64,000 nt of DNA from Escherichia coli. Its GTDB lineage: Bacteria; Pseudomonadota; Gammaproteobacteria; Enterobacterales; Enterobacteriaceae. Both the position numbers and the translations under genes were made by a program. Every line of letters starts with the position of its first letter. Position 1 is the stretch's first letter. Below, in pieces: positions 36,178 through 46,245 of the stretch. The stretch lies in assembly GCF_044324875.1 (NCBI RefSeq), contig NZ_CP172185.1; one strand, given 5' to 3'. The notes beneath the pieces were generated by a model that had not been told where the DNA came from, did no database searches, and worked only from the letters and a program-made list of their open reading frames with translations.

Positions 36178-36690
36178 TCATTGTGATATTTCCATCTCTG
36201 TGATTAATACCGGATAAGCATTTAATTGCAGAGTTTGCACGAAATTATCGCAGATAACTGGCAATAACAATAACCCATCAGCCCGCTGCTGTAATACCTC
36301 CATTCGTTCTACTGATTCAACATTAACAACCAAACCAAGGGCATTTAGCGATTTAAGGATCTCCAGATGTTCACTCATCCAGCGCAGAGAAAAAGGATCA
36401 TCACCAATTATAAAAACAGGCCCCCAGCCGGTTAATAACTGGCGTTTCATTACGGAGCCAGGATGAAGTCGAGTACATATTACAGGAAATACCCCCTGTT
36501 GCGATGGTTCCGATGATGTGGATAATTCAGAAATATTTTCCATTGTTAGTGAAGAATTAACATCCATTAATAATGGTGAAACAACCTCACTTTCCTTGCT
36601 AGTAATGGCTGCACTAATCTGAAAGGAAAATAACAATATTATTACGTACAAACTTATTTTTAACATAACACATTCAATCCGTTTATTCAT
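36178..36690 (-). CDS. Hypothetical protein with N-terminal signal/TM segment (possible orphan immunity protein)
   Basis: 170-aa ORF, N-terminal hydrophobic stretch LKISLYVIILLFSFQISAA; AT-rich; no recognised domain. Confidence 0.35.
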   Translation of the reverse strand: MNKRIECVMLKISLYVIILLFSFQISAAITSKESEVVSPLLMDVNSSLTMENISELSTSSEPSQQGVFPVICTRLHPGSVMKRQLLTGWGPVFIIGDDPFSLRWMSEHLEILKSLNALGLVVNVESVERMEVLQQRADGLLLLPVICDNFVQTLQLNAYPVLITEMEISQ

Positions 36691-36756
36691 GTTATAGAAT
36701 AATAATGCTATAAATCATCATTAATGTTCAATTATTTAATCACACAATTTAAAAAA

Positions 36757-37260
36757 TCATCGACCAATGTGAATTGGCAATGTACCACTCAAGTTAAAAT
36801 CACTGAATATTTTATCAATTTCTCTTGCAGTTTCTATATATTTAACCTCTTTCGTACTTGCATTATAAATAGCCCAAGCCTCGGGATGGGATGTTCCACC
36901 AAACCTTACAAAAAAACTTGATTTCATATTATTATATAAATTAACATCAGGAAAAGGATCTTCTCCAAAATTAGTAGTATTAAATAATGAAAGTTCGTAT
37001 CGCTTAGAAAATTCTGTTGGTAGGATAGCTTCACTGCCATCAATAGCATTCATCCAGAGTTTGTTACCATTATATTCCAACAATAATCTCTGTTTTGCAT
37101 GTGTCTTATCTCGTTCTTTAACGACAGCGAATACCTTTTTAACAACTTGCTGTGCGGATGGTCCTATTGTATTACCAAAAGCTGGCAACCCGATTTTGCC
37201 ATAAACACTCTCCTGAATGAAATAAATATCCGTTTTATCGGCCTCGACAATATCTACCAT
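36757..37260 (-). CDS. Hypothetical cytoplasmic protein (possible orphan immunity or toxin-tip protein)
   Basis: 167-aa ORF, AT-rich, no recognised catalytic motif; lies between the two H-repeat copies. Confidence 0.35.
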   Translation of the reverse strand: MVDIVEADKTDIYFIQESVYGKIGLPAFGNTIGPSAQQVVKKVFAVVKERDKTHAKQRLLLEYNGNKLWMNAIDGSEAILPTEFSKRYELSLFNTTNFGEDPFPDVNLYNNMKSSFFVRFGGTSHPEAWAIYNASTKEVKYIETAREIDKIFSDFNLSGTLPIHIGR

Positions 37261-37369
37261 TTATCCCTCCAAACAAGACCTGACTCCAGGACAAGAGCAT
37301 AGTGTGTAGTAAACACTTCATGCTCTTGCCCTGACCATTGAAATAACAACTTTCGTTTGTTTACTGTAC

Positions 37370-41480: not shown

Positions 41481-42323
41481 TTATTGTGGGATAAATCCCA
41501 GTTCCTGTTGTGCAAGTTCATGTACCCGAATATGTCCCGGGTATGACTGATTGCTGAGTTGTTCATACCAGTCATCCGGAATATATCTGAGATCGATTAT
41601 ATTTTTTTTCAGTAATATAAGCGTCATTGTTCTGACGGAACGATCATCTGCTATATTTAATGACTGGCAAAAAGAGAAATAATCTTCTGCCAGAATTCGG
41701 GATGATTCAGCTTTTGATGAATCATCCCATCCGTTTTTATCTACATTTTCTTCGATAAATGCAGATAATATATCAAGATAATTATCCCGTGCCTTTCGTT
41801 CCAGTTGGCTATATTGTCTGTAACTCAGCGTCAGTTGTGATGGCCGTTCTGCCCTTATATTCATAGTTTCTGCGGGACGGACGGAAGAAAAATTATCCTC
41901 ACGACATTCTTCACCATAACGGGTACTTAGCTGTCTGACGGGACTGATAAAAGAAAGACGCTGGCGGGGGGTCAGAACTTCCACTAATACCCATATATTC
42001 CGGGGATCATAAAATCGCATGAGAACAGGTTTCTCCTGTTCGGGGATCCTAACCCACAGATAACGTCTGAAGTGTTGCTGTAGCTCACGCATGGATGACT
42101 CAGAAGTCAGATATATTCCCCATGGCGACGCCTTAACACTCAGCCATGCTTCAACCTCCGGAACGACTTCCACGAGATAGGGGGCTAGCGCGACCAGATC
42201 CAGTTGTATGGGTTCTGCATACAGACAACAGTGCGGGGGATTCACCTCGTTCAGAAAATCCAGCAATCCTTCCTCCACAGCGCCATCCACAATGGCGTAC
42301 TGCACGGGTGCCGTTTCCATCAC
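41481..42323 (-). CDS. DUF4123-family T6SS effector adaptor/chaperone (Tap/Tec-like)
   Basis: 280-aa ORF with the family's N-terminal YAIVDGA-type motif; start overlaps the vgrG stop (ATGA). Confidence 0.7.
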   Translation of the reverse strand: MMETAPVQYAIVDGAVEEGLLDFLNEVNPPHCCLYAEPIQLDLVALAPYLVEVVPEVEAWLSVKASPWGIYLTSESSMRELQQHFRRYLWVRIPEQEKPVLMRFYDPRNIWVLVEVLTPRQRLSFISPVRQLSTRYGEECREDNFSSVRPAETMNIRAERPSQLTLSYRQYSQLERKARDNYLDILSAFIEENVDKNGWDDSSKAESSRILAEDYFSFCQSLNIADDRSVRTMTLILLKKNIIDLRYIPDDWYEQLSNQSYPGHIRVHELAQQELGFIPQ

Positions 42324-44278
42324 TTATCCTCCTTCGGGCAGTGCGCCACAAACATTGTCCCGCTTCCGGCTGCGGCTTTCAGGATCACCGGGCGCATCGG
42401 CAGGATCACGTCTCCCGGACTGCCTCCGCCGTTAAGATTGATTTTCGCGCCCTTAATATCCACGCCGCCGGAATGGATCACCACAAATGAACCGCCCACC
42501 CGCAGACTGATTTTGCTGTCGCTCTGTAAAACAATATCGCCCTGTACGCTGATACCCAGCGCGCCGCTTATTTTCTGTGCCAGATCGCCTTTCACCTCCA
42601 GCCCCTGATTGCCCTCTGTCAGGCTGACATGGTCTTTGGTGGTTTTATGGTCCTGTTTACCTTCAACCGTCACTTTCCGGTCATTTGCCACCACCAGGGA
42701 TTCATCATGCCCGATGCTGACCGTCCGGTCATAGTTGACCCGCTTATCCTTGCTGTTCAGCACAACGACTTGCATATTTTTCTGTGCGTGCAGGTAAATT
42801 TCTTCCTTGTCCGTCGCGTCCTCGAACCGCAGTTCATTAAAGCCGCTTCCTTTATAGGTCTTCGATCGTATCGTCATCTGCGTCTTCGTCCCCGGCAGAC
42901 TCCCCGGCGAACGGTTGTCCTCATGGTACGTCCGCCCCATGATTATCGGCTGGTCCGGGTCGCCGTTCAGGAAGTCTACAATCACTTCCTGGCCGATGCG
43001 CGGTATCGCCAGGTTACCAAATCCCGGCCCCGCCCACGCCTGCGACACCCTCACCCAGCATGAACTCGCCTCCGTTGCCGGGTTATACCTGTCCCAGTGA
43101 AACTGCACTCGCACACGTCCGTGTTCGTCGCAGAAGATTTCCTCTCCCGCAGGACCGGTGACAATGGCGCTCTGTGGCCCGTCCACCTTCGGTTTGCTTT
43201 GCAGCCGTGGACGCCACGTCCGGTCCGCCGGTATCACCTCTAACTGATTTCCCAGCATGGTTCCTCTCCCCTGGCTGCCGTGCAGCGCCTGCGGCTGGTC
43301 CCCTGACAGAATACTCTGTACCACCTGCCATTCACGGTTCAGCATCTTCTGCGGATGCCCCGTCAGCGTAAACCGCGTTCCCGGCCACAGCTTCGGTGAA
43401 TTACTCTGCCCTGTGGCCTTTTCCGCATCACTGCGCAGGCTCTCCATCTGGTACAGCGTGAAATCCTTGCCGTGCTGTTCATCCTTGAACCTTCCCGGAT
43501 AATCAAATATCTCATACTGCTCCAGCTGTCCGTTCAGGTTCTCACCCTGCTGCTCATACATCCCCGGCCAGTCCGGCACCTTAAACGTGTAATCCTGGCT
43601 CTGCACCGACGACGGGCGGACATACGCCTCATAACGGAACATACTGACACACTCTGTCTCCGCTCCTGCCGATGTGTCCGGGTTAAACGGAAGCTCTCCC
43701 GCCTGTGACAGCCCCGCCACATCGTCGCACAGCGTCAGCTTCTGCTCCGGACTGTCCGCCGCAAACCGCTCAAAGAAGAAAATTCCCTCCTCCGCCCACA
43801 ACCGCGCCAGAAACGCCAGGTCGCTTTCCCCGTACTGGACACAGAACTCCCGCGCCGGATGGTCCTCATAAAACAGCGGTGTCCACTCCGTGACGCCGTT
43901 CTCGTTCAGTAACGTGGCCGATATCGTCCGGATATCCTGCTGCTGGAAGATACGGAAGTTCTGCCGCAGCCCGCACCGCCATAACGGCGGCTCAATACGC
44001 AGGTGATAACGCATCTGCCAGCCATTGTTCTCCTGCATGCCAAAACCCGCCACCACGCCGGTGACATAACGCAGCGGGATGACGCCCTGCCAGATGGTCA
44101 GCGTCGCCTTCTTCTCCAGCAGCATCTCCGCCGTCTGCATAAAAGAGTCGCTGGCAACATCCACACTCATCACAAACGGATAAGACTGGTTCTGGATTAA
44201 CCTGAAATGCACCACTGCAAAGGTGTCCGGCTCCTGGCCGTCAATCTCCAGCGTAAAGCGCAGACCTTTTAAGGACAT
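42320..44278 (-). CDS. vgrG: T6SS spike protein VgrG
   Basis: 652-aa ORF MSLKGLRFTLEIDGQE... with gp27/gp5-like VgrG architecture and C-terminal beta-helical repeats. Confidence 0.9.
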   Translation of the reverse strand: MSLKGLRFTLEIDGQEPDTFAVVHFRLIQNQSYPFVMSVDVASDSFMQTAEMLLEKKATLTIWQGVIPLRYVTGVVAGFGMQENNGWQMRYHLRIEPPLWRCGLRQNFRIFQQQDIRTISATLLNENGVTEWTPLFYEDHPAREFCVQYGESDLAFLARLWAEEGIFFFERFAADSPEQKLTLCDDVAGLSQAGELPFNPDTSAGAETECVSMFRYEAYVRPSSVQSQDYTFKVPDWPGMYEQQGENLNGQLEQYEIFDYPGRFKDEQHGKDFTLYQMESLRSDAEKATGQSNSPKLWPGTRFTLTGHPQKMLNREWQVVQSILSGDQPQALHGSQGRGTMLGNQLEVIPADRTWRPRLQSKPKVDGPQSAIVTGPAGEEIFCDEHGRVRVQFHWDRYNPATEASSCWVRVSQAWAGPGFGNLAIPRIGQEVIVDFLNGDPDQPIIMGRTYHEDNRSPGSLPGTKTQMTIRSKTYKGSGFNELRFEDATDKEEIYLHAQKNMQVVVLNSKDKRVNYDRTVSIGHDESLVVANDRKVTVEGKQDHKTTKDHVSLTEGNQGLEVKGDLAQKISGALGISVQGDIVLQSDSKISLRVGGSFVVIHSGGVDIKGAKINLNGGGSPGDVILPMRPVILKAAAGSGTMFVAHCPKEDK

Positions 44279-44498: not shown

Positions 44499-45017
44499 TT
44501 ATGCTTCCAGCGGTGCACGCCAGTCATCGGCACCAGAAGTACCGGATTTGATGTGCTCCCACTCAACCTTACGGTATGCCAGTGATACTGCGAGCAATTG
44601 CGTAAACTCACGCTGTGCAGGGTCCTGGCAGTGCGGCATGTGCAGGTTCATGTCCACAATCGTCGCGTCAGTAAGACGTGTGGTGAAGTAGTGCTCCTGC
44701 TTGCCTTCAACTGAAGTACGCCACCAGTGCAGCTCCACTTTCGGCAGCATTTCACCGGAGGCCAGCGCGTTGTACAGCAGCGGAACGGCTTTGTTCAGCG
44801 CCACGGTGAAAATGAACGGTTTGTGCGCGCGCTGCCCGGAAGGTTGACCAGACTGTGGATCGGTTGGAACAGTAACGTTATGCAGAAACTCCTGCACCAG
44901 CATTTCATCTTCGTGTCCCTGCACGTAGATATTGCCGACAGAATCTGCGGTGAAAGCACCGGCAGTGATGTTCCCCTGGGTCTGACCTGTAATTGAAATG
45001 TAACATGGGGTTGGCAT
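44499..45017 (-). CDS. hcp: T6SS inner tube protein Hcp
   Basis: 172-aa ORF MPTPCYISITGQTQGNITAGAF... typical Hcp. Confidence 0.9.
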   Translation of the reverse strand: MPTPCYISITGQTQGNITAGAFTADSVGNIYVQGHEDEMLVQEFLHNVTVPTDPQSGQPSGQRAHKPFIFTVALNKAVPLLYNALASGEMLPKVELHWWRTSVEGKQEHYFTTRLTDATIVDMNLHMPHCQDPAQREFTQLLAVSLAYRKVEWEHIKSGTSGADDWRAPLEA

Positions 45018-45396
45018 TTATGAACTCCTTGTGAAATTATCAACTGCTGTTTTACGAACAACCCGTCGTTAATCCCCGACGGGTTAGAGTGTGATGCGGC
45101 TCACATCAGGAACCACACCCTTTTCTTTATTCGAGTTACAGGCACACGTAATTAGCACCTACTGAAAAACTCTTTTATGGTGTTTAAATATATTTTTAGT
45201 CAATTTCAGAACACGGTCACATAAGCTAAAAATATATCAACTTCAACAGCAGAATTATCCATAACGTATCCTTCCCCCCATAAAAATCCACAGCCGCGTC
45301 AAAAACAAATTATTACGACACTTACTCAGCCATCGTTCCAGCACGCAATTAAGACATTCCTTAAAGGAATTCCTTATGATGTATTTCCAGCAATTA

Positions 45397-45406
45397 ATCA
45401 ATTGAT
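45397..45406. promoter_or_regulatory. Perfect 10-bp palindrome in the divergent hcp/tssB control region (candidate regulator binding site)
   Basis: ATCAATTGAT within AATTAATCAATTGATAAAA in the ~700-bp AT-rich intergenic region; resembles AT-rich Fur-type half sites but not verified. Confidence 0.2.
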
Positions 45407-45719
45407 AAAACCATACATAAAACTTATTAATAAATTTAATAAATACATATAAATCAATATATTATGGCATTTTATTGACCGTAAAATCATATTCATCAAG
45501 TCTATAAATACCAAAATTTATTTCACTATAATATATTAGCAAGGAAGAATACATCTCTTTCTAAAATATAAATAGTTCTTTTAATATTTTATTTCATGAG
45601 TAGAATACCGATCACAACAGAAGGAAGGTTACATTATCTAACTGCCACTGAAACGGTATCTTCGGTATTTTTATGCAGTACGAAAATGCTGTGCTCATGG
45701 CCTGAACGGGAACATTTTT

Positions 45720-46223
45720 ATGAGCAAAATGAACAACAATGGCGGCAGTGTCGCGCCGAAAGAAAGAATCAGCGTTCGGTATACACCAAAAGTTGATGGG
45801 GTGGCTGCTGATATCGAATTGCCGCTGAATTTATTGATCACCGGCAATCTGAAAGGGAAACCAGATAACACGCCGTTGGACGAGCGAACTGCCATTGCTA
45901 TCAACCGCTATAACCTCAACGCAGTCATTTCAGAAGCTGACATTGAACGGGAGTTTGTTGTTCCGGCTGAACTCAGTGACGCTCCCAATGAGCAAATGTA
46001 CGTCAACCTGAAAGTCAAATCTATGGATGACCTTTCTCCGGACCATATTGCCAGCCAGGTACCAGAAATAAAACGTCTGCTCGAATTGCGTGAAGCTCTG
46101 GTCGCACTTAAGTCTCCACTAGGCAATATTCCGGCCTTCCGCGCACAACTTCAGGCGCTACTGGAAAACGAAGACAGCCGCGAGCAGCTGATCCAAGAAC
46201 TGGGTATCGCCGCTCAGAAATAA
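45720..46223 (+). CDS. tssB: T6SS contractile sheath small subunit
   Basis: 167-aa ORF, first gene after the divergent promoter region, followed by tssC. Confidence 0.9.
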   Translation: MSKMNNNGGSVAPKERISVRYTPKVDGVAADIELPLNLLITGNLKGKPDNTPLDERTAIAINRYNLNAVISEADIEREFVVPAELSDAPNEQMYVNLKVKSMDDLSPDHIASQVPEIKRLLELREALVALKSPLGNIPAFRAQLQALLENEDSREQLIQELGIAAQK

Positions 46224-46245
46224 TTTTCACAGAAGGATTTTCAGT

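Follow-up and report, generated by a model that had tools for sequence, protein, structure and literature searches.

T6SS-2 is the commonest T6SS of E. coli, and its silence in the laboratory has blocked research into what it does in EHEC, ExPEC and Shigella. The bidirectional T6SS-2 promoter of EHEC, including its start sites, has reportedly been studied by Kim et al. 2022 (J Microbiol 60:928). The EHEC system is repressed by H-NS and derepressed in an hns mutant (PMC5363993), and H-NS binding has been reported at the hcp3-tssB region (PMC13141884). Furthermore, CsrA is described as a negative regulator of EHEC hcp3 and tssC (Wang et al. 2017, as cited in PMC13141884). Inactivation of hns in the APEC strain TW-XM, whose T6SS2 is that of the aspV island in ST95 strains, raised clpV2, hcp2A and hcp2B, and iron limitation and fur inactivation had no effect on clpV2 or hcp2B (PMC5874247). 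The T6SS2 of ST95 strains is located at tRNA-Asp, with yafT and ramA on either side (PMC4232414).

We analysed the corresponding region in a 64-kb stretch of E. coli DNA (64,000 nucleotides), hereafter the window. An earlier note, made from the letters of this DNA, had described about 700 bp of very AT-rich sequence between divergent hcp-vgrG and tssB-to-tssM units. This was confirmed. The gap measures exactly 702 bp and has a GC content of 32.9%, against 52.1% for the window. The region and the two genes that border it are as follows.

45018-45719, no strand assigned: the whole hcp/tssB intergenic control region, 702 bp, 32.9% GC
44499-45017, minus strand: hcp (Hcp2B type), which opens the hcp-vgrG-effector unit (Pfam T6SS_HCP PF05638, E 1.5e-32)
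45720-46223, plus strand: tssB, first gene of the structural operon (Pfam T6SS_VipA PF05591, E 1.2e-44; annotated tssB in E. coli 042)

The Hcp protein, WP_001142963.1, is annotated identically in E. coli 042 and UTI89, and it is 94% identical to the EHEC Hcp; TssB is only 55% identical to its EHEC counterpart. Genes for VgrG and a DUF4123 protein are found downstream of hcp. On the other side tssB is followed by tssC/E/F, and the remaining operon through tssM is seen in the E. coli 042 record. The intergenic region is 99.9% identical to positions 263117-263818 of the E. coli 042 chromosome, near yafV, ivy and fadE, with the tRNA-Asp outside the window, and it is about 92% identical to the UTI89 and APEC O1 alleles. 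Judging by these alignments, it is the control region of the T6SS-2, probably the aspV-side one, in its ExPEC/EAEC allele, and a diverged counterpart of the EHEC "bidirectional promoter". The allele is present in 552 of 5426 complete E. coli genomes, a patchy distribution as expected of horizontal acquisition, and IS and ICE remnants are located close to the locus in the E. coli 042 record. The evidence supports the reading of the region as one that controls the divergent units of a T6SS gained by horizontal transfer.

We consider it probable that this bidirectional region combines an AT-rich centre occupied by H-NS with a tssB core promoter at one end and a structured, CsrA-type hcp leader at the other. 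The H-NS repression, the lack of a Fur or iron effect and, for EHEC, the action of CsrA on hcp are parts of this explanation that come from the literature.

The AT-richness is concentrated in a core at 45381-45600, with a GC content of 19.5%. The region ranks fifth among 1266 sliding windows for AT-richness, and a comparable stretch occurs only at about 36.3-37.3 kb of the window. The divergent layout with a long spacer was found in all 16 orthologous loci from other Enterobacteriaceae, where the gap is 523-706 bp long with 29-37% GC. Divergence between the 042 and UTI89 types is about 11% in the central region and 1-3% at the ends, and collinear blocks between genera are confined to the two ends. 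The central 350-400 bp thus appear to be conserved in length and AT-richness only. A consistent 10-11-bp helical periodicity of AA/TT, indicative of A-tract phasing, was not found in the central region of the 16 orthologues. A higher conservation of the leaders than of the adjoining genes was not generally seen on comparison.

Such AT-rich composition is what H-NS targets, and silencing by H-NS would fit the region. This reading rests on composition together with the published hns-mutant data for this locus type; the T6SS2 of TW-XM was taken as the same type on the basis of PMC4232414 and the comparison with the UTI89 and APEC O1 sequences. The main text of an RNA-seq study of an E. coli 042 hns mutant lists a neighbouring island gene, and tssB and hcp are absent from that text. 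The best match in the region to the high-affinity H-NS motif tCGATAAATT is 8/10, which 88% of shuffles equal; the motif is not obligatory for binding. The remark in the earlier note that the region is typical of H-NS-silenced acquired promoters fits the composition, the distribution over genomes and the related loci (PMC5874247, PMC5363993), and finds no support in a nucleation motif. By analogy with those loci we infer that H-NS binds the 042-type allele. The central 350-400 bp would most likely serve as its landing pad, keeping both divergent units off under laboratory conditions, with the sequence-specific elements placed at the two ends of the region.

The centre contains the perfect 10-bp palindrome to which the earlier note had drawn attention, at the position that it gave, along with other short symmetrical sequences.

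45397-45406, no strand assigned: perfect 10-bp palindrome ATCAATTGAT, inside a minus-strand IHF-core match at 45395-45407, TATCAATTGATTA
45356-45375, no strand assigned: overlapping palindromes ATTCCTTAAAGGAAT (45356-45370) and AAGGAATTCCTT (45364-45375), from a sequence scan
45452-45464, plus strand: second IHF-core match, AATCAATATATTA, kept in UTI89 and E. whittamii and lost in Pseudocitrobacter and EHEC

Perfect 10-bp palindromes number five in the region, against a mean of 1.2 in dinucleotide shuffles, and AAGGAATTCCTT is longer, with 12 bp. With several palindromes in such AT-rich DNA, a single 10-bp palindrome in 702 bp is unremarkable. In other E. coli ATCAATTGAT reads ATTAATTGAT or ATTAATTTAT, or is split by a 4-bp insertion, and it is missing from all ten other aligned orthologues. 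We rejected it as a regulator site on these grounds, and it is in all appearance a strain-specific accident. The 15-bp palindrome ATTCCTTAAAGGAAT is intact in the 042, UTI89 and E. whittamii types; half of it survives in EHEC, and Pseudocitrobacter has lost it.

No Fur box stands out from chance. The best 19-mer match in the region is 12/19, and 91% of shuffles are as good; for the 7-1-7 form the best match is 9/14, and 100% of shuffles are as good. Since the APEC T6SS2 does not respond to iron or Fur either (PMC5874247), Fur control was rejected, and with it the suggestion of a Fur-like or other dimeric regulator at the palindrome. Consensus scans of the region for Fis, Lrp, ArcA, PhoP, SlyA and LeuO gave no match above chance.

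Alternatively, IHF might bind at the palindrome in an architectural role, bending the long spacer and aiding or opposing H-NS. The two matches to WATCAANNNNTTR, at 45395-45407 (minus) and 45452-45464 (plus), are perfect, any match at all is found in only 12% of shuffles, and the second site is retained in UTI89 and E. whittamii. However, the UTI89 type has lost the first site, EHEC and Pseudocitrobacter retain neither, and a core consensus this short and AT-rich will often be matched by chance in such DNA. We regard a role for IHF as quite unlikely.

At the tssB end, conservation between genera outlines a promoter and a leader.

45601-45606, plus strand: predicted tssB -10 hexamer TAGAAT, from the orthologue alignment
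45547-45589, plus strand: two blocks conserved ahead of the tssB promoter, GAATAC-N2-CTCTTT (45547-45560) and AGTTCTTTTAATATTT (45574-45589)
45610-45613, no strand assigned: lone GATC, 3 nt past the predicted -10 and approximately at the predicted transcription start
45644-45711, plus strand: conserved tssB leader, with candidate helices GCCA/UGGC (45644-47 with 45698-701) and ACGGUAU/AUGCUGU (45653-59 with 45686-92) from RNAalifold
45696-45704 and 45708-45711, plus strand: elements of the tssB leader, CAUGGCCUG and the GGGA ribosome-binding site

Each of the 11 orthologues compared has a -10-like hexamer 116-130 nt from the tssB ATG: TA(A/G)AAT in nine, TAATAT in one and TCATAT in one. The upstream blocks are collinear in Pseudocitrobacter and Buttiauxella, 144-146 nt from the tssB ATG, and the motif is also found in EHEC, Superficieibacter, Salmonella and one metagenome locus. 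A consensus promoter scan of the region returned six promoter-like sites against 3.9 expected, none of them conserved; the tssB promoter was missed because of its weak -35. The tssB side would carry a sigma-70-type promoter made up of the conserved -10, a weak -35 and the AT-rich upstream blocks, and with a start site placed by the position of the -10 the leader would be about 107 nt long. Covariation for the candidate helices of this leader is weak, and the fold z-score is -0.86.

The GATC was placed near 45609 in the earlier note; it is present, at 45610-45613, and is the only one in the region, compared with 1.75 in shuffles and about 2.6 from the window average of 3.7 per kb. There is thus no enrichment, and the region scans found no regulator site overlapping it. 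Because a GATC recurs 2-3 nt past the conserved -10 in 7 of 11 orthologues, often as the sole GATC of the gap, an influence of Dam is a weak possibility despite the lack of enrichment, and that much of the suggested Dam control is left standing.

The sci-1 (T6SS-1) promoter of EAEC is reportedly under Fur and Dam control (Brunet et al. 2011, summarised in PMC5874247). A switch of this epigenetic type, with ATCAATTGAT occupied by iron-loaded Fur or a different dimeric regulator and this occupancy tuned by Dam methylation at the GATC, could be proposed here from the presence of both elements and from the recurring position of the GATC behind the -10. Several observations speak against it. The palindrome lies 204 bp away from the GATC and the predicted -10, it is one of five and is not maintained in other E. 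coli or the other orthologues, the Fur-box matches are no better than in shuffles, GATC is not enriched, and clpV2 and hcp2B of APEC were unchanged by iron limitation or fur inactivation (PMC5874247). Unlike sci-1, the region has no Fur box over the core promoter, and no GATC inside a regulator site or the -10. We find such a switch highly improbable.

The hcp end of the region is dominated by an element that is conserved as RNA.

45025-45034, minus strand: hcp ribosome-binding site, UCACAAGGAG on the hcp-sense strand, which carries the second GGA; ACAAGGAGUU is nearly invariant across genera
45060-45085, minus strand: hairpin 1 of the hcp leader, AACCCGUCG-GGGAUUAA-CGACGGGUU, from RNAalifold, with the loop GGA at 45073-45075
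45094-45118, minus strand: hairpin 2 of the hcp leader, GUGUGGUUC...GAGCCGCAU, predicted by RNAalifold on the hcp-sense strand only

The two-hairpin element spans 45060-45118 on the minus strand, and covariation extends over at least six genera and one metagenome contig. It was seen in Escherichia, Pseudocitrobacter, Salmonella, Superficieibacter, Buttiauxella, Lelliottia and the metagenome contig, and in weaker form in Enterobacter. RNAalifold predicted both hairpins on the hcp-sense strand at -20.7 kcal/mol, against -9.6 kcal/mol with C.A mismatches on the opposite strand. Taken together, 95% of cells in the two hairpins are paired, 7 of 18 pairs are compensatory, and the covariation score is reached by none of 500 shuffles. 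Hairpin 1 shows compensatory changes in six of its nine pairs (7/9 in a larger alignment), and its U.G wobbles are valid on the hcp-sense strand only; in hairpin 2, 96% of cells are paired, mainly via changes from G.U to G-C. The larger alignment has 11 of 18 compensatory pairs for both hairpins, and it leans towards structure, being fitted to the covariance model and including one weak plus-strand match. In support of the structure, the single-sequence fold of the leader has a z-score of -2.99, and the covariance model matches Lelliottia (64.7 bits) and Enterobacter (35.6 bits) leaders, both untrained. EHEC-type leaders match at about 85.5 bits. The more distant Trabulsiella, Phytobacter, Kluyvera and Citrobacter have different hairpins, without a match to the model.

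A search of the rest of the window and of the 042 locus found no further copy of the leader motif, not even in front of the second hcp. A search of Rfam at a permissive threshold (E up to 1, positions 44800-45950) returned one chance miRNA match inside tssB and no family match, and a terminator scan found none at the hairpins. Transcription of hcp would start upstream of 45118, so that the leader folds into the two conserved hairpins. A consensus scan and inspection by eye found no convincing sigma-70 site upstream of hairpin 2. By eye, a TTGACT was noticed at 45198-45203, with no good -10 to accompany it.

The E. coli glgC and pgaA leaders are controlled by CsrA. Leaders of this kind have at least two GGA, in a hairpin loop and in the ribosome-binding site, at a spacing within 10-63 nt. 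The hcp leader has the same arrangement, with one GGA in the loop of hairpin 1 and, 47 nt away, a second that lies within 45025-45030 in the ribosome-binding site. The latter GGA, with ACA upstream, fits the CsrA consensus. The loop, (A/G)GGAUUAA, is more conserved than the stem of hairpin 1, and 8 of 11 close orthologues retain its GGA. Loci without the loop GGA are Salmonella P0010, Salmonella P0016 and Enterobacter. The pair of GGAs suggests that hcp may be controlled by CsrA. Binding in this classic layout for a CsrA dimer would block translation or destabilise the mRNA. We tentatively propose that the hcp leader of T6SS-2-type clusters is an undescribed conserved two-hairpin RNA which puts Hcp synthesis under CsrA independently of H-NS. 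If true, control by CsrA would help explain the merely partial activity of T6SS-2 after hns deletion or promoter swapping.

Hairpins in this position could also act as 5' stem-loops against RNase E, or be the site of another RNA-binding protein or a small RNA. The structure is conserved even though 3 of the 13 loci with the hairpin 1 motif lack the GGA in the loop, no GGA occurs in hairpin 2, and mRNA-stabilising hairpins matter elsewhere in the T6SS operon (PMC13141884). Conservation of the loop beyond that of the stem, the agreement of the ribosome-binding-site GGA and its upstream ACA with the CsrA consensus, and the effect of csrA on EHEC hcp3, as cited in PMC13141884, argue against this, and we hold a function other than CsrA binding to be somewhat doubtful.

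A further element overlaps the 3' arm of hairpin 2.

45090-45105, no strand assigned: perfect CRP core, TGTGA-N6-TCACA

No other such site occurs in the 64 kb, for which the expectation is 0.04, and none of 500 shuffles of the region reach it. The core does not vary among six E. coli of the 042 and UTI89 types, scores 9/10 in Pseudocitrobacter and E. whittamii and 8/10 in one metagenome locus, and its left half is deleted in EHEC. Its position over hairpin 2 suggests that there may be an additional or alternative layer of control. Direct control of hcp by cAMP-CRP from this site, as a roadblock or repressor in the leader or as an activator of another start site, would account for a perfect and unique core maintained in two lineages of E. 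coli and nearly so beyond them, and CRP sites have been predicted in silico in the S. sonnei counterpart too (PMC10924462). Nevertheless, the EHEC type lacks the left half-site, and the flanks and GC-rich spacer fit the 22-bp consensus poorly (14/22, with 35% of shuffles as good). No -10 is found downstream at class I or class II spacing, the overlap with the RNA-conserved hairpin arm may itself explain why the site is conserved, and S. sonnei reporters were unaffected by glucose (PMC10924462). Control through CRP thus seems rather unlikely to us.

For strategies aimed at activating T6SS-2, the useful information would lie at the ends of the region, in the conserved tssB core promoter and the structured hcp leader. 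The centre would be a merely compositional platform for H-NS, and Fur or iron would not be the cue. Two hypotheses that tie T6SS-2 to carbon and nutritional state are provided by the candidate CsrA site and the CRP core. The hcp-leader RNA element, the CRP core and the long AT-rich spacer shared by all 16 loci are features beyond those in the earlier note.

Overall the region is ordinary, largely known and of an already described type; the conserved RNA structure of the hcp leader has not been pointed out before. The sci-1 promoter of EAEC likewise drives a T6SS of E. coli 042 and has a GATC close to its core promoter, but it belongs to another T6SS family at another chromosomal site, whereas the hcp/tssB region has no Fur box and a single, non-enriched GATC. 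The CsrA- and RsmA-controlled leaders share with the hcp leader a GGA in a hairpin loop and a GGA in the ribosome-binding site, here at a distance that a CsrA dimer could bridge; the hcp leader differs in having two GGA only, the loop GGA being missing in some orthologues, and its CsrA site is a candidate. T6SS mRNAs of Pseudomonas are controlled by RsmA, as cited in PMC13141884. The Salmonella SPI-6 T6SS is H-NS-silenced according to Brunet et al. 2015, as cited in PMC5874247 and PMC5363993. Like the hcp/tssB region, it has the AT-rich promoter of a laboratory-silent T6SS gained by horizontal transfer, with another gene order; H-NS binding to the hcp/tssB region is presumed.

The T6SS2 of APEC TW-XM and NMEC RS218 (hcp2B-vgrG2 versus vipA2...hcp2A) is the locus type of the UTI89/APEC O1 allele (PMC5874247, PMC4224132, PMC4232414), and it is divergent, derepressed in the absence of hns and unresponsive to iron and Fur. 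The window carries the 042-type allele, about 8% different from the UTI89/APEC O1 allele and mostly so in the centre, and the effector cargo downstream of vgrG is DUF4123 in the window versus DUF2169/XmtU in TW-XM.

The T6SS-2 "t6sP" region of EHEC O157:H7 EDL933 (hcp3/tssB) has the same divergent arrangement of hcp-vgrG and the tssB operon as the window (PMC13141884; PMC5363993). EHEC has an extra 225-bp ORF between tssB and tssC, its central region cannot be aligned with the window beyond composition, and it lacks the left CRP half-site, the ATCAATTGAT palindrome and the GATC after the -10, all of which the window has. The two gaps are nevertheless close in length and composition (696 bp and 32.8% GC in EHEC, 702 bp and 32.9% here). 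Common to both are the hcp ribosome-binding site, both leader hairpins, the tssB -10 and the GAATAC..CTCTTT block, together with the leader block GUACGAA.AUGC.GU..CAUGGCCUG.

The gap between the divergent hcp and tssB genes is the known, H-NS-repressed control region of the E. coli T6SS-2. Its bounds were placed correctly in the earlier note. Pfam confirms both genes, as does the annotation of E. coli 042 (99.9% identical), where tssB stands at the head of tssC-E-F-G-tagH-J-K-L-H-vasI-A-M and hcp at the head of vgrG and a DUF4123 gene. The gap spans 702 bp with 32.9% GC, against 52.1% window-wide, and its core (45381-45600) has 19.5%. The vgrG downstream of hcp (42320-44278) is an intact ORF of 652 aa; in the 042 locus, the annotation gives its counterpart (L001, 17360-19261) as a pseudogene truncated at the C-terminus. 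The window thus stems from a close relative of 042 rather than from that strain.

Features of the hcp/tssB gap and its flanking genes (window coordinates)
44499-45017, minus strand: hcp
45090-45105: perfect TGTGA-N6-TCACA CRP core, TGTGATGCGGCTCACA, overlapping the 3' arm of hairpin 2 in the hcp leader
45397-45406: palindrome ATCAATTGAT, inside a perfect IHF core match
45547-45560: conserved block GAATAC-N2-CTCTTT, tssB side
45574-45589: conserved block AGTTCTTTTAATATTT, tssB side
45601-45606: conserved hexamer TAGAAT, predicted tssB -10
45610-45613: GATC, 3 nt after TAGAAT
45720-46223, plus strand: tssB

Among the 5426 complete E. coli genomes, 552 carry the allele of the window, 174 of them matching at 99% or above (042 type) and 353 at 90-95%, including UTI89 and APEC O1. 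A more sensitive search revealed a diverged counterpart in about 2200 further genomes, among them EHEC EDL933. The ExPEC allele is the 'T6SS2' of the literature, located at tRNA-Asp with yafT on one side and ramA on the other (PMC4232414), and its Hcp proteins share more than 99% identity with those of RS218 (PMC5874247; PMC4224132). IS elements break up the region in some strains. In E. coli SCU-176 (L007, 3001-3855) an IS1 sits 142 bp away from hcp, only the hcp leader is kept and the cluster is rearranged, and strain S1-ISR-02-A (NZ_CP145636.1) carries an insertion of about 1.2 kb in the hcp-tssB stretch, consistent with the annotated IS5.

Silencing by H-NS had been proposed from the sequence, and both the AT-rich composition and the patchy distribution fit it. 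Published data on this locus type agree: inactivation of hns in APEC TW-XM raised clpV2, hcp2A and hcp2B, which were not raised by anaerobiosis, osmolarity or temperature (PMC5874247), T6SS transcripts of EHEC were up to 60-fold higher after hns deletion (PMC5363993), and the hcp3-tssB region is stated to be H-NS-bound (PMC13141884). For the allele of the window itself, we infer binding. A gap of 523-706 bp with 29-37% GC is kept in all 16 orthologous loci (named genera: Escherichia, Pseudocitrobacter, Salmonella, Superficieibacter, Trabulsiella, Buttiauxella, Enterobacter, Phytobacter, Kluyvera, Citrobacter and Lelliottia), next to hcp and tssB coding DNA of 46-57% GC in the 11 loci measured. 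Collinear blocks between orthologues are confined to the two gap ends, and within E. coli the centre has diverged by about 11% and the ends by 1-3%. The constraint on the centre is thus one of length and composition, not of sequence, and this is what an H-NS platform would predict. Two results speak against that reading: within the gap, a scan for the Lang high-affinity H-NS motif performed no better than chance, and no A-tract phasing was found. Just one other part of the window matches the gap in AT-richness (36300-37300, about 32% GC); it encodes a hypothetical protein and an 'integrating conjugative element protein' and contains remnants of ISAs1/ISEc1. From the equivalent portion of the 042 island, an hns mutant expressed a hypothetical-protein gene, EC042_RS01270, 13.6-fold (37 C) and 88-fold (25 C) more strongly (PMC7582179).

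The palindrome ATCAATTGAT, put forward as a site for a Fur-like or other dimeric regulator, is present but statistically unremarkable. A strain with 98% identity has ATTAATTGAT at this position, the UTI89 type has either ATTAATTTAT or a 4-bp insertion that splits the palindrome, and none of the 10 other aligned orthologues contains it. The gap holds five perfect 10-bp palindromes (shuffle mean 1.2) and a previously overlooked 12-bp one, AAGGAATTCCTT (45364-45375). The latter overlaps the palindrome ATTCCTTAAAGGAAT in 45356-45375, in an otherwise variable gap centre. The 15-bp one of the two is shared by the lineages of 042, UTI89 and E. whittamii; neither could be matched to a regulator. The IHF core match around ATCAATTGAT (45395-45407) is not conserved. 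Across the whole gap no Fur-box match exceeded 12/19, a score at least equalled by 91% of shuffles, and in APEC neither iron limitation nor fur inactivation affected clpV2 and hcp2B, whereas both control the T6SS1 of that strain (PMC5874247). On these grounds we reject the Fur reading. The palindrome lead of the earlier note is wrong too; its overall framing of the region is right.

On the tssB side, a -10-like hexamer lies 116-130 nt from the tssB ATG in all 11 orthologues examined; nine of them have TA(A/G)AAT, and the other two have TAATAT and TCATAT. GAATAC-N2-CTCTTT, AGTTCTTTTAATATTT and TAGAAT, together with a weak -35, suggest a sigma-70 promoter with a predicted start near 45613. The GATC for which Dam regulation had been raised does exist. 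Its count is not notable (one, with 1.75 expected), but its placement is of more interest: in 7/11 orthologues a GATC follows the hexamer by 2-3 nt, often as the only one in the gap. The recurrence may come from constraint on the start region and not on Dam; a Dam effect is possible but unlikely. Several segments of the tssB leader (about 107 nt) are conserved, namely the tandem repeat CGGTATCTT/CGGTATTTT, GCAGUACGAAAAUGCUGU, CAUGGCCUG and a GGGA ribosome-binding site. The leader is also predicted to form a candidate long-range helix, with weak covariation and a fold that is not unusual (z = -0.86). The 9-nt direct repeat (45654-45671) follows a YGGYATTTY-twice pattern also seen in EHEC, Salmonella, metagenome and Buttiauxella tssB leaders. 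A conserved AUG within CAUGGCCUG (45697-45705) starts a two-codon mini-ORF, AUG GCC UGA, and in one Salmonella locus (L015, ~1565-1600) tssB is in frame with this conserved leader AUG. Among the TssB entries of the database, several (P0096, P0098, P0101, P0103) are 204-210 aa long, so the annotated start codon varies.

The hcp side has a conserved leader structure missed in the earlier note, which we regard as a modest new lead. The 110 nt upstream of the hcp ATG fold on the minus strand into two hairpins, hairpin 1 (45060-45085) and hairpin 2 (45094-45118), with a single-sequence z of -2.99. RNAalifold predicted both from 10 orthologues (-20.7 kcal/mol, covariation term -1.9), with compensatory changes in 7/18 pairs and 95.3% of cells paired; none of 500 shuffles reached the covariation score, and sliding the partners by 1-3 columns left pairing in just 32-48% of cells. 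Folding the opposite strand yielded a single hairpin of -9.6 kcal/mol; its covariation term was positive, and the U.G wobbles turned into C.A mismatches. It is therefore RNA of hcp polarity, and not DNA, that is under constraint. A covariance model built from these leaders found one copy per locus and matched untrained leaders of Lelliottia (64.7 bits) and Enterobacter (35.6 bits); in the enlarged alignment fitted to it, 11/18 pairs were compensatory. An Rfam search of the leader returned no family match. The hairpin 1 loop is (A/G)GGAUUAA in most sequences, and the only other GGA of the leader lies 47 nt downstream, in the nearly invariant ribosome-binding site ACAAGGAGUU. A GGA in a hairpin loop together with one in the ribosome-binding site is the standard CsrA geometry. 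The loop GGA is missing in 3/13 loci with the hairpin 1 motif, and more distant genera have different hairpins, several with GGA in or adjoining the loop (e.g., UGGAAA in Kluyvera). According to a report cited in PMC13141884, CsrA negatively regulates hcp3 and tssC in EHEC; PMC13141884 points out the AGGA at the ribosome-binding site, not the hairpins.

The CRP core is the only one in the 64-kb window (0.04 expected) and does not vary among the six aligned E. coli sequences from the 042 and UTI89 types; its flanks are poor (14/22). Transcription of the hairpins would place the core within the leader. It may serve as a repressor or roadblock site specific to this lineage, or may follow from conservation of the RNA sequence. 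For the S. sonnei counterpart, CRP sites have likewise been noted in silico, and glucose had no effect there (PMC10924462).

In EHEC EDL933, where the gap has been named the 'bidirectional promoter t6sP' (PMC13141884), hcp and tssB are likewise divergent, with 696 bp between them. Comparing 44499-46223 of the window with 1801-3516 of the EDL933 locus (L008), Hcp is 94% identical but TssB just 55%; the two sides of the gap therefore differ in history. With divergence thus mosaic, the recombination boundary between cargo and machine sides lies inside the intergenic region. Furthermore, the left half of the CRP core is deleted in EHEC, and an additional 225-bp hypothetical ORF (L008, 3551-3775) occupies its tssB-tssC interval, whereas the window lacks this ORF and its two genes are 22 nt apart (46224-46245).
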